Numbered from the stretch's first letter, positions 4,388 to 47,339 are shown. The stretch: DNA of 64,000 nt from Sedimentisphaerales bacterium (GCA_963666285.1 OY762714.1), one strand, 5' to 3'. Translations and numbers: made by a program. The notes: generated by a model from the sequence alone, not told the origin.

Positions 4388-4405
4388 TTTTAAGGAGTTC
4401 TTATC

Positions 4406-40601: not shown

Positions 40602-40684
40602 TTTAAGGAGAATGAATTATGAATTTGAAAGTAATATTACTTATGTTATTAGCTGGATTTGCTGCCCAATTGAATGCGGCAGCA
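40488..40684 (+). repeat. Copy 1 of a ~195-bp direct repeat (sorting signal, spacer and next signal peptide)
   Basis: Near-identical to 41794-41991. Confidence 0.9.
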
Positions 40685-41173
40685 CTACATTTAACAGACT
40701 ATGAAACTTCAACTGTTAATGTTGGTGATGTATATGATAGTATTTATCTTGAAGATTATTCAGAAGTTACAGTATTAGGCGGTTCAGTTGACGGTATATG
40801 GATAATTGATAATTCACAATTATATATTTCTGGTGGAAATATCTCAGGATCTGCACAACTTAACGACAATTCAACTTTGTATTTATCTGGAACCAATTTT
40901 TACATAGGTGATACAGCTATTGAATACGGAGAACTTGATTTATGGTCATTATCAGAACAAGGTTTAATATCTTATTCCCAATCAGAATTTGATGAGTGGG
41001 ACGGAATAATTACTGGTATATTAGATGATGGTAGTACAATTGAATTATCTTTTCACATCGGCCTATTCCGCACAGGAAGTGAGCCTGAAACAGCAAATAT
41101 AGTTTTAGTTCCAGAGCCAATTTCACTAGCATTGCTGGGAGTTGGTGGATTAGTAACAATAAGAAAAAGATAA
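40619..41173 (+). CDS. PEP-CTERM protein
   Basis: Signal peptide; ITGILDDGS module; VPEP-TM-RKR. Confidence 0.9.
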   Translation: MNLKVILLMLLAGFAAQLNAAALHLTDYETSTVNVGDVYDSIYLEDYSEVTVLGGSVDGIWIIDNSQLYISGGNISGSAQLNDNSTLYLSGTNFYIGDTAIEYGELDLWSLSEQGLISYSQSEFDEWDGIITGILDDGSTIELSFHIGLFRTGSEPETANIVLVPEPISLALLGVGGLVTIRKR

Positions 41174-41238
41174 TGAAAAATTGGATTATCGAAATATTCT
41201 GGGAATAATATAATTACTGTTTATTTGGAGAATTTGGT

Positions 41239-41859
41239 ATGAAAATAAAATTATTATTGTTAATGTTATTTATGGGTATAACTTCACATCTACAAGCTTA
41301 TGTATCAGTTGATGGAGATGAAGTAAAAGATTTTGGCAGTAGCTTTACAACTAGCGAACTTATTGTTTCAGATAATGGAGTAGCTAATATTATTGGTGCC
41401 ACTATCTATGATGACCTTTATATTTATGACAACGGTACGGTTAATATGTCAAGTGGCTCAGTTAATTTCGGTTCATTCTCATGGATGGACGATAACGCAA
41501 TAATGACCATTACAGGTGGAAATGTAACTACATCGAGTAGATTGTCAATAAGAGAGTACGCCAATCTTTCACTATTTGGTAGTAACTTCTCTGTAGGTGG
41601 AGTATCTGTAGGCTACGGAGAGCTTGATTTAGAGGAATTATTAAATCTTGGCGCAATCACTTATAGTGTCGATGAAGCTGAACGTTGGAGAGGTAGTTTA
41701 TCTGGGATTCTAGATGATGGCAGTGATATAAATATAGACTTTTACATTTCTCATACCAGAGGCACAGATGAGACAGCTAATATTACTCTTGTACCGGAAC
41801 CCATTTCACTATGCTTACTTGGCCTGGGCGGTCTAATAACTATTAAAAAAAGAAGTTAA
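41239..41859 (+). CDS. PEP-CTERM protein
   Basis: Signal peptide; LSGILDDGS module; VPEP-TM-KKR. Confidence 0.9.
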   Translation: MKIKLLLLMLFMGITSHLQAYVSVDGDEVKDFGSSFTTSELIVSDNGVANIIGATIYDDLYIYDNGTVNMSSGSVNFGSFSWMDDNAIMTITGGNVTTSSRLSIREYANLSLFGSNFSVGGVSVGYGELDLEELLNLGAITYSVDEAERWRGSLSGILDDGSDINIDFYISHTRGTDETANITLVPEPISLCLLGLGGLITIKKRS

Positions 41860-41991
41860 TAAAAATCCAGGATATCGAAATATCTTGAGAAATATACAAA
41901 CAAGTTGATTTAAGGAGAATGAATTATGAATTTGAAAGTAATATTACTTATGTTATTAGCTGGATTTGCTGCTCAATTGAATGCTGCGGCA
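41794..41991 (+). repeat. Copy 2 of the ~195-bp direct repeat
   Basis: Near-identical to 40488-40684. Confidence 0.9.
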
Positions 41992-42501
41992 ATTATCTTG
42001 GAAGGGAATGAGACACTAACTGTCGATTCCGGGGATAATTATCTTGGTGTTCACATGAGTGACAATTCAACCGCTACCATATTAAGTGGTACTATTGATT
42101 TCGGTAATTTCTATACCAACTCTACGGTAGAGGACGATTCAATAATTACAATTTTAGGTGGTAATATCACTGGTCAAATTATCATCAACGAAAATGCATT
42201 AATTCAATTATCTGGTTCAAATTTTACGATTGGGAATACATCAATTAGTACTGGAACACTTGACTTGGAATATTTAACCGATATTGGAGCATTATCATAT
42301 AACCATAGTGAATTAGACCAGTGGGATGGTACTATATCTGGAATCTTGGATGATGGTTCATATATAAGTTTTGATTTTTCTATTGTACGTCCTGTCTATC
42401 GTGGAGATTCTTGGACTGCAAATATTGAGATACTACCTGAACCCCTTTCACTTTGTTTATTAGGTTTGGGCGGATTAGTAACCATTAAGAGAAGAAAATA
42501 A
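41926..42501 (+). CDS. PEP-CTERM protein
   Basis: Signal peptide identical to that of 40619; LPEP-TM-KRRK. Confidence 0.9.
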   Translation: MNLKVILLMLLAGFAAQLNAAAIILEGNETLTVDSGDNYLGVHMSDNSTATILSGTIDFGNFYTNSTVEDDSIITILGGNITGQIIINENALIQLSGSNFTIGNTSISTGTLDLEYLTDIGALSYNHSELDQWDGTISGILDDGSYISFDFSIVRPVYRGDSWTANIEILPEPLSLCLLGLGGLVTIKRRK

Positions 42502-42723
42502 TTATTTAGAAAAGGAGATGGTACGATAATAATCTGATTTTTTAAACCTCAGCCTCAGCTCTGAAGCTAACAGGGTTTTGCCCTTTGCTTCTTACTTTCG
42601 CCATCGACCTGGGCATTTGTGAAGGCCGATGTCGATGCGACGAAGCTGCAGGGACAAAAAGAATCAGTAATATAATACAATCGAGTTGGTAGTCAGTTTC
42701 GGCTAAGATTAAGAGTTTTAGCT

Positions 42724-42873
42724 GGAGCAGAATAGGTTATAGGCTGCATAATAAACTTGAGGCATAGCGACCTCGTAAAGGAGAATAATCAGACCTGTAA
42801 TCGAATCGCCATCGTAAGGCATTGTGACCTTGTATAGGAGTTTGGTGGCTGCCGACATTGTTAAGTCTGCTCC
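42724..42873 (+). ncRNA. Predicted IS110 bridge RNA (target- and donor-binding loops)
   Basis: Closing stem ggagcaga/tctgctcc; two homologous loops, each with an inner hairpin (gagg-catagcga-cctc; aagg-cattgtga-cctt); flanking segments match the target and donor junction sequences. Confidence 0.75.
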
Positions 42874-42899
42874 GGAACCATTAATTTTCGGAGATACAA

Positions 42900-43913
42900 A
42901 TGAGTTATTTAGGTGTAGATTTACATACAAACAGTTTTACGGTATGCAGAAGAACTAAACAGGGCAAAGAAACCATAAGAGATTATTCGATTGCCCGTAT
43001 AAATGATTTTATAAAGACTTTGCGAAAAGATGATCTGCTGGCAGTCGAAGCTACTGGTAATACCAGCTGGTTTATTGAGCAGTTAGAGAATCGCATCAAG
43101 AAGGCAATACCAGTGAATCCTTATCAGTTTGAAGTGATTCGTAAGTCAGTTAAAAAGACAGATAAAAATGATGCCAAAGTATTAGCATATTTTTTGAGCA
43201 AAGATATGCTTCCGGAATCAAGAATGAAAAGTAAAGAAAACGCACAATTACATTCATTGTCAGTTACACGTGATAAACTGGTCAAGCAGCGTACAGCTTT
43301 GATCAATAAGATTCATAATGTGCTGAATGCCCATGGGCTCAAGTTTAAGAAAGAATCTCTGGGTACAGAAAAAGGCTTGAATAGCATTTGGTCCTGGAAA
43401 TGGGACAAGATAGTTGAAATAGAACTGGAAGTGCTGGTATCTCAGATCCGTAGCCTGAATGATCATATCAAGAGACTGGATAAAGATATTACTGAACAAG
43501 GTGAGAAACTTAAAGGGCATAAGAATCTGACTAGCATCAAGGGCATAGCAGGTCGTTCAGCTACTGTACTGCTAAGTACAATTGGTGACGTTAACGACTT
43601 TGCCGACGAGCACAAATTGGCTTCTTATCTTGGAATTGTACCAAGAGTTTCAGATTCTAATGAGACAATAAGGCATGGGCGAATAACTAAACGTGGCGAT
43701 AAGCTGGCGAGAACTACTCTGGTCCAATGCACGTTGGTTGCTAAACGGTACAGCCCATATTTACGAAACTATTATGAACGTATAAAGAGCCACCGTGGCT
43801 CAGGTAAAGCTATTATTGCAACAGCAAGGAAGTTTCTAGGAATCATATATAATACCCTGAAAAATGACTGGGTATTTGAAGACTTCCCAAACTTTGTAAT
43901 AGCAAATACTTAA
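42900..43913 (+). CDS. IS110-family DEDD recombinase/transposase
   Basis: GVDLH, VEATG, KTDKNDA (DEDD); C-terminal YLGIVP..SDS...GRITKRG. Confidence 0.95.
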   Translation: MSYLGVDLHTNSFTVCRRTKQGKETIRDYSIARINDFIKTLRKDDLLAVEATGNTSWFIEQLENRIKKAIPVNPYQFEVIRKSVKKTDKNDAKVLAYFLSKDMLPESRMKSKENAQLHSLSVTRDKLVKQRTALINKIHNVLNAHGLKFKKESLGTEKGLNSIWSWKWDKIVEIELEVLVSQIRSLNDHIKRLDKDITEQGEKLKGHKNLTSIKGIAGRSATVLLSTIGDVNDFADEHKLASYLGIVPRVSDSNETIRHGRITKRGDKLARTTLVQCTLVAKRYSPYLRNYYERIKSHRGSGKAIIATARKFLGIIYNTLKNDWVFEDFPNFVIANT

Positions 43914-43964
43914 ATGAAATATTTACTAATTTTGGAGTAGATTTTTAACATAGGAGTCTTTATT

Positions 43965-46900
43965 ATGAAGAATATGTTTCTTGGGGTAATGTGCGCGCTG
44001 ACATTTATTTTATTGACGGAAAACTCGGTTCTTGCTGACTATCAAGCAACTGTAATAGATTTTGGTACTTTAGAAATTTTCAGTTATTCAGATAACAACT
44101 CTGTTACAGTTTATGATTCCAGCGATTCGCTACAATGGTCTGGAATAATTAAAAAAGGATTGTCCTATGTTTATCGAGGTGGAGAGAAATATGAGGTATA
44201 TAAAATTGAAGCAACAGGCCCATTTACAGTATTAAATGGTGATGCCATATTAGGTTCTCAAAGAAATTGTATTAGTGGTTATTATGTAATGAACCCAAGT
44301 GACAAAAGTGTAAGTAGTGAATTATATACCTCATTCACTGACGCGGAAGGTAAGTTTATTGTTTTTGCTTATGAAGATGAAACATATTTAGAAGTCAGTC
44401 AATATACAGGTCAAGACGACCCTAACACTGGTTTACCAGAATATGTTTCTTTGATGCGATCAACAGATCCAAATTATCTCAATATTGGCGAGCATATTGA
44501 ATGGGATACTGACTCAGAGGATATCGAAGGTAGCATTCTTAAAATAACTGCAACAAAAGGTGTGTCGGCGCTTTGTGTAACAGATTCCGGTTATTTTGTA
44601 CCTGCAAGTAATGGAACATTTAGCGGGCAGGAATTTTACACTTATTTTAGAGATCAGGGAGACACTGAAACATTTGTATTTGTTGGATATTCTGATGATA
44701 CAACTATTACCATTACTCAAAACGGTCAGCCATTTGATGAAATTACAGTCCAGAGAGGTCAAGTTTATGAAATGGACATGAGGCCGGAAACAAGACCTGG
44801 AGCACTTAATGAGTATTATGAAATTACATCGACAGATACAATATCAGTTGCTGTCTATAATAACAACAACAGGCTGGTATTTGCTCCCGGAGAAGATGGC
44901 AGCGGGTTCGGTAGTTTGGAAAACTATGTATTGTTAAATATGCTTACAGCACACGATAATCTTCATGTGCTGTCACATGCAGACAATACAACGGTAAATT
45001 TATATAATTCAGCAAACGGTCTTCCAGCTAGCAGCGATAGTGAAAATAAAACATTCCCTATAATATTAGATAAAGATAAAAAAATCAAAGGACAAAATGG
45101 TGTAGATGTTGGCTGTACTAATGATTTTAACTATGACCTTGAAGTTGACTCCGATGATCTGGTTTCTGTGTATTATGGCTATACAGGTGAATGTTATGCC
45201 GAATTTGTCCCACTTGGTTTTGACATAATAAAACCCGCTGGTATAGACCCGAATAACCTGTATGTTTACAATGATGCAGATGAGTTGATTGATTTGGACA
45301 ATGACGGATTTAGTACAGATCCTAACGATACTCAATTCTACTATGACATACTGCCAAGCGATGAGATTGACATAAATCTAAACGGCACCTTTACCGGCAC
45401 AGACACTAATATGACAGCAAAAGTATATTTTGCTCCTGAAATGGACATAGACTTAGCAACAGCTATGAGCAGTAACTATGAATATGAAAACCATGCTTTC
45501 ATAATTGATCTAGGCGATATGCCTTTTACAGTAAATGAAACATTAACTGTAACAATTAACGAAATGGCGAAGCCTGGTACATCAATTAAATTCCATGTTA
45601 AATACGAAAGTGACCAGCATAGAGAAATGGCTCATTATCATCTGGAAGTAGGCTACTGGACTTCTGATGATGCTGTTGAAGGCGTTGTGTATGTTGATCA
45701 AAATGCGTCTGGTTACACATCAGGAACTTCTTGGCGCAACGCATTCACAGATATTAACCAGGCAATGCTGTTTATCGAGGAAAGTTACTACGATTACGAT
45801 TCTATCTGGGTTGCTGCTGGTGCATATTCACCAACAACATACTGTGACCTAGTTGGAGATTCCTTTGAACTGTACGAAGGCCTGTCAATGTATGGCGGCT
45901 TTGCCGGTGATGAAATCTCTTTAGATGATCGTAATATTGTTACTAATAAGACTATTCTTGACGGTAATCCTTATGACGATAGCGAAGAACAAAAAACAAA
46001 CGCTGTAACAATTAGTGGTAATAATACTGTCCTGAATGGCTTTATCATTAAAGACAGCGGTCAAGCCGGTATCAAAGTTAACAATACAAGCACAACTGGC
46101 AATCCTCCGCAAATTTCATTCTGTACAGTTACTGGTAATACTACTTATGGTATTGATATAGAAAATTCTTCTATAAAGATTTCTAATTGTAATATTTACA
46201 ATAATGGATATTCGGCTATCAATACAGATAGCAATGGCGATATTTCTGTCCTGAACAGCTTTATCCATAAGAATACCGGAGGTATTAATATTGCAGGAGC
46301 AAACTCATCTGATGAAATCAGAGGCAATACCATCGCTTATAATAGCGGCACTGGTATAACTGCTGATGGCGGAGTTCAGGTTATCAGTAATATTGTCTGG
46401 GAAAATGACTTGCAGCTTAGCGGACCATTTACTCCTGAATATAGTTGTGTTCAGGATTTAGACCCGAATAATATTCTTGATGATTGTGTGCAAGACCCAA
46501 ATTACAACATCCAGTGTGACCCATTATTTGCTTATCCACAACAAGACCCCAACTTCTTACTTTCAGACTATTATGATCTTCACCTGTCAATAGAATCACC
46601 TTGCAAAGAATATGGTATGACTTCTGCTGTTGATACGGTAAATGAGGTAGATATCGATGGTTCAAACAGATTAGAAGATGATGATGTAGATATGGGTGCA
46701 GATGAGATATCATGCTGGGAAACCAATACCATCTATGACATTAACGAAGATAGCAGGATAGACCTATACGAATTTGCTGGTATGTCTGCTACTTGGCTGG
46801 AAGAACCAAATATCTGGAATCCAGATTATAATTGGGCTGATACCGGCACAAGTGAAGAAATCATTGATGTTGATGATTTCGCAATCCTAGCTGAATACTG

Positions 46901-47339
46901 GCTATGGCGACCATGCTATATAACCGATAGTACAATAAGTGACATGATCGAAACAATGTCGCTATCTACTATGTCAGTATCAGCGATGAGCCTGGAAAGC
47001 ACTGCTTCGGTTTCAACAGATAGTACGACAGCAGAAGTAGGTACAGCCAGTTTAAGCGTATTTGATCTGACCTCTACCGCTAATGACCCTGTTGTTTCTG
47101 ATGAGATCGTAACAAGGAATTTGTCACGTTCAAGCCTGATGGACAACAAGTTAGCAGTTGATAGTAAGAGTTCCTCTGTTGAAATGCTGGCTGTCCAGTT
47201 GGTTCAGCTTGAGAAATTCGTTGAGGAAATCAAAGACTCTATGACGGAAAAAGAATACAAAAAACTTATGAAGGAAATTCTTGAAGCAAAGAAAGAAATG
47301 TATTTAATGTATTTTCGACAGGAGTTATTAAAACAATAA
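43965..47339 (+). CDS. Large secreted protein (IgGFc-binding-like N-terminus, beta-helix, dockerin-like C-terminus); paralog of 34303
   Basis: Signal peptide; GTSWRNAFTDIN, YGGFAG.E, DMGADE, DINEDSRIDL and WLW motifs shared with 34303. Confidence 0.75.
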   Translation: MKNMFLGVMCALTFILLTENSVLADYQATVIDFGTLEIFSYSDNNSVTVYDSSDSLQWSGIIKKGLSYVYRGGEKYEVYKIEATGPFTVLNGDAILGSQRNCISGYYVMNPSDKSVSSELYTSFTDAEGKFIVFAYEDETYLEVSQYTGQDDPNTGLPEYVSLMRSTDPNYLNIGEHIEWDTDSEDIEGSILKITATKGVSALCVTDSGYFVPASNGTFSGQEFYTYFRDQGDTETFVFVGYSDDTTITITQNGQPFDEITVQRGQVYEMDMRPETRPGALNEYYEITSTDTISVAVYNNNNRLVFAPGEDGSGFGSLENYVLLNMLTAHDNLHVLSHADNTTVNLYNSANGLPASSDSENKTFPIILDKDKKIKGQNGVDVGCTNDFNYDLEVDSDDLVSVYYGYTGECYAEFVPLGFDIIKPAGIDPNNLYVYNDADELIDLDNDGFSTDPNDTQFYYDILPSDEIDINLNGTFTGTDTNMTAKVYFAPEMDIDLATAMSSNYEYENHAFIIDLGDMPFTVNETLTVTINEMAKPGTSIKFHVKYESDQHREMAHYHLEVGYWTSDDAVEGVVYVDQNASGYTSGTSWRNAFTDINQAMLFIEESYYDYDSIWVAAGAYSPTTYCDLVGDSFELYEGLSMYGGFAGDEISLDDRNIVTNKTILDGNPYDDSEEQKTNAVTISGNNTVLNGFIIKDSGQAGIKVNNTSTTGNPPQISFCTVTGNTTYGIDIENSSIKISNCNIYNNGYSAINTDSNGDISVLNSFIHKNTGGINIAGANSSDEIRGNTIAYNSGTGITADGGVQVISNIVWENDLQLSGPFTPEYSCVQDLDPNNILDDCVQDPNYNIQCDPLFAYPQQDPNFLLSDYYDLHLSIESPCKEYGMTSAVDTVNEVDIDGSNRLEDDDVDMGADEISCWETNTIYDINEDSRIDLYEFAGMSATWLEEPNIWNPDYNWADTGTSEEIIDVDDFAILAEYWLWRPCYITDSTISDMIETMSLSTMSVSAMSLESTASVSTDSTTAEVGTASLSVFDLTSTANDPVVSDEIVTRNLSRSSLMDNKLAVDSKSSSVEMLAVQLVQLEKFVEEIKDSMTEKEYKKLMKEILEAKKEMYLMYFRQELLKQ

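Follow-up and report, generated by a model that had tools for sequence, protein, structure and literature searches.

A predicted bridge RNA with conserved 3′ guide arms probably directs an IS110-family clade to ribosome-binding sites

Overview of the element

We analysed a stretch of 64,000 nucleotides from Sedimentisphaerales bacterium (GCA_963666285.1 OY762714.1), called the window below. The window contains an IS110-family insertion sequence (IS) of 1439 bp, located at 42518–43956 on the + strand and present as a single copy in the host genome. Very probably this is an RNA-guided element, and the conserved 3′ guide arms of its bridge RNA aim the whole clade at ribosome-binding sites. The explanation was drawn from the observed anatomy, covariation, boundaries and site statistics of the element and its relatives. 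The clade is large: 4,735 related proteins were found at E ≤ 1e-20 among 6,146 candidates, and its members occur in metagenome-assembled genomes (MAGs) labelled Planctomycetota, Acidobacteriota, Omnitrophota, KSB1, Latescibacterota and Pseudomonadota.

In the proposed mechanism, the 3′ arm of the target-binding loop, near-fixed as x(A/T)AAGGAG, would pick the Shine-Dalgarno word of the host through RNA–DNA pairing in vivo, and the 3′ arm of the donor-binding loop, xATAGGAG, would pair with the element's own right end. Because the 3′ arms are nearly fixed, recombination at the core would put the element immediately 3′ of the host AGGAG, always co-oriented with the gene. The right end would then supply AGGAG at an unchanged distance from the start codon, and the downstream gene would from then on use ATAGGAG as its Shine-Dalgarno word. 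The fast-evolving, presumably programmable arm would be the 5′ arm of the target loop, and most fixed copies would be one-arm insertions guided by the core and the Shine-Dalgarno word.

Transposase and boundaries of the insertion sequence

The open reading frame (ORF) at 42900–43913 (+ strand) encodes a transposase/recombinase of 337 amino acids (aa) with DEDD_Tnp_IS110 and Transposase_20 domains. It showed domain-level matches to PF01548 (E 2e-16) and PF02371 (E 9.5e-23), and passed the NCBIfam model NF033542, "IS110 family RNA-guided transposase", with 235.7 bits against a cut-off of 140. The initial annotation of this locus had described an element of the IS110 family whose left end encodes a two-loop bridge RNA; the Pfam and NCBIfam matches, together with the covarying helices described below, bear this out, and all the junction, loop and stem sequences that it had named were found in place.

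At the left junction, the flank AAAAGGAG (42510–42517) is followed by the element start ATGGTACGAT. This flank holds the host Shine-Dalgarno word AAAGGAG (42511–42517, + strand), which was left behind at the left junction, would serve as the target of the 3′ side of the target loop, and is supported by an empty-site orthologue. At the right junction, the element end CATAGGAG (43949–43956) is followed by the spacer TCTTTATT (43957–43964) and the ATG of the target gene at 43965. AGGAG is common to both junctions, as the last 5 nt of the left word and at the element right end, and therefore the exact crossover point is ambiguous. As the crossover falls within AGGAG and the element finishes in ATAGGAG, an AGGAG still stands 8 nt ahead of the gene at 43965, as it did originally. 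Spacer and target gene together form the right flank (43957–47339, + strand); the gene is intact and encodes a secreted-looking beta-helix protein of 1124 aa.

The boundaries 42518–43956 rest on three independent lines. Firstly, a genome of the same genus (G003) carries the orthologous gene pair without an IS between the two genes (40% aa identity for the PEP-CTERM gene, 53% over 785 aa for the beta-helix gene), and its intergenic sequence reads ...AAAAGGAGTCTTATAAAATG; this IS-free locus represents an empty site and agrees with the boundaries proposed initially. Secondly, in a sequencing run of another organism (X3) the element had a depth of about 255x against 19–32x in flanking contigs, and the contigs break at 42510–42514 and 43957–43958 into differing flanks, two of which continue with ATG. 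Thirdly, more than 60 relatives have common termini, (A/G)(T/C)GG(T/C)A(T/C)GA on the left and xCAT(A/G)GGAG on the right. The call of the whole element at 42518–43956 thus combines profile matches, copy count, contig breaks and shared termini.

The termini are asymmetric, with only 8–10 bp subterminal repeats and a short AGGAG core shared by target and element ends. The left terminus (42518–42534, + strand) consists of ATGGTAC followed by the subterminal inverted repeat GATAATAATC (42525–42534); the right terminus (43940–43956, + strand) consists of the repeat GATTTTTAAC (43940–43949) followed by ATAGGAG. The two repeats agree at 8/10 positions, and the best 10-nt inverted match between the ends ranged from 7 to 10 of 10 in 52 distinct elements.

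It had been suggested that the element supplies a replacement Shine-Dalgarno word. The sequence part of this proposal holds, as right ends always read xCAT(A/G)GGAG and the spacing of AGGAG to the start codon is unchanged; from this we infer that the downstream gene would continue to be expressed. Read-through of the element from a host promoter is also plausible from the layout, because element and target gene point the same way and the transposase stop codon lies only 43 nt short of the right end. A promoter and terminator consensus scan gave chance level, with 4 promoter-like sites against 5.8 ± 2.5.

Structure of the predicted bridge RNA

The bridge RNA gene is predicted at 42724–42873 (+ strand, ends approximate), and its outermost candidate stem would be formed by GGAGCAGA (42724–42731) with TCTGCTCC (42866–42873). 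The target-binding loop spans 42735–42802 (+ strand) and is closed by an outer stem of GGTTATAGGCTG (42735–42746) with CAGACCTGTAATC (42790–42802). Within it follow the 5′ arm CATAATAAACTT (42747–42758; CATAATAAACT at 42747–42757 had been noted earlier as the 5′ side), an inner hairpin (42759–42774), the linker GT, the 3′ arm AAAGGAG (42777–42783) and the handshake dinucleotide AA (42784–42785). The donor-binding loop at 42803–42842 (+ strand) has the 5′ side GAATCGCCATCGT (42803–42815, including ATCGCCATC at 42805–42813), an inner hairpin (42816–42831), the linker GT, the 3′ arm ATAGGAG (42834–42840) and TT (42841–42842).

For the structure, the 150–200 nt 5′ of the transposase were aligned from 20 relatives at 50–80% aa identity, and examined with RNAalifold and our own pair counts. 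The outer stem of the target loop was paired in 94.5% of cells, and five of its pairs had changed on both sides. The inner hairpins were paired in 96% (target loop) and 100% (donor loop), the latter with 4/5 pairs compensatory; altogether three helices carry compensatory changes. The covariation score of the whole structure was reached by 0/500 shuffles, and pairing was 83% against 25–53% in slid controls. The outermost stem was paired in 51% in a MAFFT alignment having a one-column offset, which spoiled this count. A candidate outer stem of the donor loop was 74% paired with one compensatory pair.

In two relatives (L023 and L032) the target-binding loop was replaced or lost, and the donor loop and transposase were kept.

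Guide arms compared with flanks and element ends

Each arm was compared with the flank or end of its own element, and the arms of other elements served as controls. In the first 18 elements, the 7-nt 3′ arm of the target loop agreed with the 7 nt that close the left flank at 121/126 positions, and 14/18 arms agreed perfectly. A larger set gave 367/385 positions with 40/55 perfect, against 84.9% for the arms of other elements; this supports the claim that the target loop recognises the Shine-Dalgarno flank with its 3′ side. The 3′ arms are nearly fixed in the clade, x(A/T)AAGGAG in the target loop and xATAGGAG in the donor loop. Seven variant 3′ arms exactly equal their own flank (L030, L046, L047, L049, L082, L134 and L147); these read TCAGGAG, AAGGGAG, AGAGGAG and TTAGGAG, as well as the fully retargeted ATAAAAG, CACGAAG and TCAGTAG.

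The second loop had been said to read the element's own right end with its 3′ side, and the two sequences indeed agree at 132/133 positions, including covarying A/G. Between the handshake dinucleotide and the two nucleotides that open the left end, 97/110 positions are identical and AT/AC covary, and guide position 10 agrees with donor position +1 in 40/50 elements against a background of 0.54. For the donor 5′ side, position 5 (counted from 0 within the last 12 nt of this side) is complementary to nucleotide 4 of the left end in 43/50 elements against a background of 0.40. The donor 5′ side pairs with the first 4–5 nt of the left end only, giving 79/114 pairs including wobble against 63% for the arms of other elements. 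Of the longer donor match proposed initially, the 4–5 nt next to the core are therefore supported, but the "ATCG" half, reached after a TA skip, is unsupported by the relatives. The transposase and the CT core are on opposite strands, in line with the earlier placement of the core on the bottom strand; this is equivalent to a reversed arm order with respect to the element.

Insertion sites across the clade

With a strict right-end pattern, 57 sources (the window and loci L023–L080) gave 45 distinct junctions with sufficient flank; 13 loci lacked the pattern and one flank was too short. At 41/45 distinct right junctions (91%), a start codon located 3–14 nt after ..GGAG opens an ORF of at least 60 codons (40 ATG and one GTG). 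The distance was mostly 5–8 nt, and the misses were L029, L032, L047 and L068. When the same test was applied to the host genome, 1229/7244 AGGAG words (17.0%) and 133/748 AAAGGAG words passed. The flanks of homologous copies are hence enriched for a Shine-Dalgarno word, spacer and ATG, as the initial annotation had anticipated when it described the element as targeting translation-initiation regions. A looser listing of junctions gave 47/53 by our own count. The initial annotation had also pointed to similar sites in the window: one is indeed present at 4392, but AAGGAG-N4-10-ATG is not enriched across the window (7 against 4.8 ± 2.3 expected).

Individual genomes gave the same picture. One Blastocatellia MAG has six identical copies, and each of them is found at TAAGGAG|element|N3-14|ATG. 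On plasmid pHSL4 of Tardibacter chloracetimidivorans (NZ_CP018225.1), the flank is GAAGGAG, the arm is GAAGGAG, and the right end ...CATAGGAG is followed by 7 nt and ATG; this copy has CT in both the handshake and the left end. In the relatives whose retargeted 3′ arm exactly matches the flank (L047, L134 and L147), no ATG follows.

In L031 and L094, a run of GAGGAG repeats stands right after the element end in place of spacer and ATG.

The gap between 91% and 17% points to a further contribution, by a weak 5′ arm, by selection after insertion, or by both. One alternative, which comes close to being probable, attributes the gap to persistence instead of targeting. Any x(A/T)AAGGAG word would serve for insertion; with the site restored by the right end, insertions at real, gene-oriented ribosome-binding sites would be nearly harmless, so that only these would persist. 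Consistent with it, only 17–18% of the host AGGAG and AAAGGAG words precede a start codon and ORF, against 91% of the junctions, while the 5′ arm barely fits the flanks; the three relatives retargeted to words other than Shine-Dalgarno sit without a start codon; and one-arm recombination has been reported for IS621 in vitro. The excess of near-perfect 5′-arm matches described in the next section speaks against it, since this suggests that the arm contributes at least sometimes. The alternative bears on the start-codon part alone, and is compatible with aiming of the clade at Shine-Dalgarno words by the 3′ arms.

The 5′ arm and the start codon

The initial annotation went further, and held that both arms of the target loop are required and jointly specify Shine-Dalgarno word, spacer and ATG, with the start codon recognised by pairing. 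We regard this full version as doubtful. At the present site it looks attractive: the complement of the 5′ arm, TTTATTATG, equals the flank at 43959–43967 (9/9) when the 2 nt beside the core are skipped. AGGAG followed by TTTATTATG within 0–6 nt occurs only 4 times, this site included, in the 6.35-Mb host genome with its roughly 7,246 AGGAG sites, and the match is therefore unlikely to be pure chance. Near-perfect matches (at most one mismatch at some offset of 0–4) were found at 4/68 junctions, namely this element, L127 (8/8), L132 (7/8) and L147 (7/8), the last three at offsets 1–2. Shuffled guides gave 1.04 ± 1.00, and 53/3000 shuffles reached 4. The 5′ arm starts with xAT in 61/76 cases and with CAT in 18, and 91% of junctions lie at real gene starts against 17% of AGGAG sites; both would suit recognition of the start codon. 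We also considered that xAT at the start of the 5′ arm may be a mere linker, comparable to C47–U49 of IS621, which was neither confirmed nor rejected.

Against the full version, the fit of the 5′ arm across the clade stayed near the control. At 30 junctions of 19 elements it matched its own flank at 112/248 positions against 1601/4534 for the arms of other elements, and at 68 distinct junctions the values were 215/569 (37.8%) and 34.9% at offset 0, with similarly small gaps at offsets 1–4. An unbiased position-by-position scan of 50 elements revealed no covariation diagonal for the 5′ arm, while the expected diagonals were present for the 3′ arms. Six copies sharing one identical arm have six unrelated spacers. 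Run X3 contains roughly ten copies of this IS (about 99% identity, although its 5′ arm may differ), and the other loose-end flanks in that run match the arm no further than ATG. The match at the present site also lies 2 nt outside the IS621 register, and conservation is lacking at the two nucleotides that face the core (CT in 7/76). Therefore, of the covariation between loops and targets expected initially, the part concerning the 3′ arm was found and the part concerning the 5′ arm was not; the reading of the start codon by the 5′ side holds as a 9/9 match here, with the 2-nt skip, but is not established for the clade.

Among closely related RNAs the 5′ arm is 50% identical against 92% for the remaining RNA. 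In our reading, the 5′ arm is a real and variable guide, yet most fixed copies are one-arm matches to the core and the Shine-Dalgarno word. They look like such half-matches because the 5′ arm fails to match the flank in most relatives.

Weighing the explanation

Several observations weigh against guidance by the 3′ arms, or limit it. No joint, either empty allele or circle, was found among the reads and contigs of four runs aligned to 42300–44200, and excision was not seen. The junction counts include multiple insertions of one element per genome as well as related elements, and are not fully independent. Taken by itself, the 7-nt word would lead to a true gene start in only about 17% of cases, against the observed 91%. 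In the IS621 register (offset 0) the 5′ arm matches only 4/9 here. An Rfam scan of 42000–44500 at E ≤ 1 returned no family; the bridge RNA is a prediction and its ends are approximate. In one metatranscriptome run, 7% of the sequence words were present. Nine of the 16 variant 3′ arms differ from the flank by 1–2 nt, part of which may stem from automatic boundary calls. A GGTGG segment located 3′ of the donor loop is an alternative pairing partner for the 5′ side of this loop (74% paired, a single compensatory pair), so that the guide role of this side is only partly supported.

A further possibility, which we think unlikely, is that the clade lives mainly by one-arm recognition and becomes an extra cistron of the host operon, as a near scar-free RNA-guided "operon inserter" whose architecture lies between those of IS110 and IS1111. 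It would be an extra cistron because insertion is always co-oriented and directly behind the host ribosome-binding site. The core and the Shine-Dalgarno word would suffice for capture, and the 5′ arm, with 0–2 nt beside the core unpaired, would merely bias lineages toward certain gene starts. The host promoter would transcribe both bridge RNA and transposase. Directly after the host AGGAG, the first 12 nt of the left end read ATG GTA CGA TAA (42518–42529), and a short frame of this kind (ATG/ACG/GTG ... TGA or TAA) has an in-frame stop at codon 3 or 4 in 62/62 relatives. Such a frame of 3–4 codons could dispose of ribosomes from the orphaned host site, while the right end would re-arm the downstream gene; it may also simply reflect conservation of the donor site.

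Very improbable is recognition of AGGAG by the protein alone, with the likeness between loop and flank a by-product of donor–target similarity and the left-end structure a transposase leader or attenuator: the bridge RNA of the clade and its binding are predicted from sequence, and the target word resembles the element right end so that arm identity to both could be inherited rather than functional. Several findings speak against it. In independent lineages, arms and flanks have changed together, as seen in variants with C, T, G or A and in three arms that are fully retargeted. The handshake dinucleotide follows the left end in its changes, each part of the architecture has its counterpart in the solved IS621 RNA, and the NCBIfam model passed by the transposase carries "RNA-guided" in its name.

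Comparison with known systems

For IS621, arm polarity and handshake guides have been described (PMC11208160, Durrant et al. 2024; PMC11208158, Hiraizumi et al. 2024). Like IS621, the present element has a recombinase with DEDD and Tnp domains, an RNA encoded in the left end upstream of the gene, and a CT core. Each loop is also built as in the IS621 RNA, with stem, 5′ arm, hairpin, 2-nt linker (GT here), 3′ arm, 2-nt handshake, linker and stem (PMC11208158). Unlike in IS621, the arm order relative to the element is reversed, and the 3′ arms correspond to the top strand of left flank and right end; conservation and specificity reside in the 3′ arm (7–8 nt) instead of the 5′ arm, in which the nucleotides opposite the core vary; the ends carry 8–10 bp subterminal inverted repeats; and the target is a Shine-Dalgarno word, whereas that of IS621 is a repetitive extragenic palindromic (REP) sequence.

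The IS1111 seekRNAs are described with reversed arm order, subterminal inverted repeats of 11–13 bp and transposases of 330–350 aa (Siddiquee et al. 2024, PMC11187229). The present element resembles them in having the top-strand complement 5′ of the bottom-strand match, subterminal inverted repeats, and a 337-aa transposase within that range. It differs from the usual IS1111 arrangement in that the RNA lies upstream of the transposase, the IS110-type position, as in the few exceptions with an upstream non-coding region such as ISMtsp17 (PMC11187229), and its repeats are shorter and imperfect (7–10 of 10). In a tblastn search against plasmids, identity was about 27% to IS4321/IS5075 and to other IS110 members alike, which gave no indication of the subgroup.

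The target-site habit of IS900 and IS901 was reportedly the subject of work by Doran et al. in 1997 and Inglis et al. in 2003. These IS110-family elements of Mycobacterium avium are reported to insert ahead of genes, in the stretch that separates Shine-Dalgarno sequence and start codon (PMC2942039), as at 41/45 junctions here. The hed ORF of IS900 lies on the strand opposite to the transposase and is said to depend on host signals (PMC8141618), from which it follows that the IS900 transposase is antisense to the target gene. By contrast, the transposase here is co-oriented with the target gene, and no long hed-like antisense ORF is present inside the element (longest 86 aa). Insertion ahead of start codons is thus already known for IS900 and IS901; new here is its probable basis in a conserved 3′ guide arm in a large environmental clade. 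The literature search returned no bridge-RNA explanation of this insertion habit, although supplements of bioRxiv preprints lay outside the search and may bear on the point. The words "ribosome" and "start codon" were not used in the main text of Durrant et al. (PMC11208160).

Half-match recombination of IS621 in vitro, at a site complementary across the core and one arm, has been reported (Xie et al., bioRxiv 10.64898/2026.08.31.748434). The natural junctions of the clade are similar in that they match the 3′ arm and core but mostly not the 5′ arm. That study concerned IS621 in vitro reactions and off-targets, whereas here one-arm matching appears from genome data to be the usual state of fixed copies.

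If guidance by the 3′ arms is correct, it would offer an RNA-level explanation for the decades-old habit of IS900 and IS901 to insert between ribosome-binding site and start codon. The clade could also be used as a natural data set on how much of the bridge RNA site choice needs, one arm and the core being seemingly enough, and on the relation between IS110-type and IS1111-type layouts. Such elements should not be annotated as gene-inactivating, since a ribosome-binding site at unchanged spacing remains in front of the downstream gene.

Other features of the element and its surroundings

The left end of the element contains a 114-nt insert (42547–42660, + strand), which is 74% identical to a segment found at four places on contig C1 (L002–L005). 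There it lies some 240 nt downstream of another IS110-family transposase (28% aa identity). The insert folds moderately well (z −1.88) and belongs to the same IS in two other organisms (runs X3 and X6); the closer relatives L082 and L083 are without it. The host genome contains 13 additional, more distant IS110 paralogues with 28–30% identity.

Upstream of the insertion, at 40605–42501, there are three tandem paralogous PEP-CTERM genes, two of which begin with the same AAGGAGAATGAATTATG context. The host assembly (G000) contains a 6.15-Mb contig and three contigs of 65.6–66.6 kb (C2–C4), and the window corresponds to C4; contig C2 has no more than a short paralogous piece in common with the left flank.

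Run X8 (same organism label, other sample) gave a contig that switches exactly at the core from another sequence to ...AG TCTTTATTATG, following the window from 43955 onward. That other sequence is neither this IS nor the left flank of the window, and the junction of IS and gene is also present in X8. In run X1, a contig of depth 3 has a left end of the kind found in other clade members joined to the beginning of the bridge RNA (window 42718–42747), which suggests that the source sample may contain a second, rarer relative.

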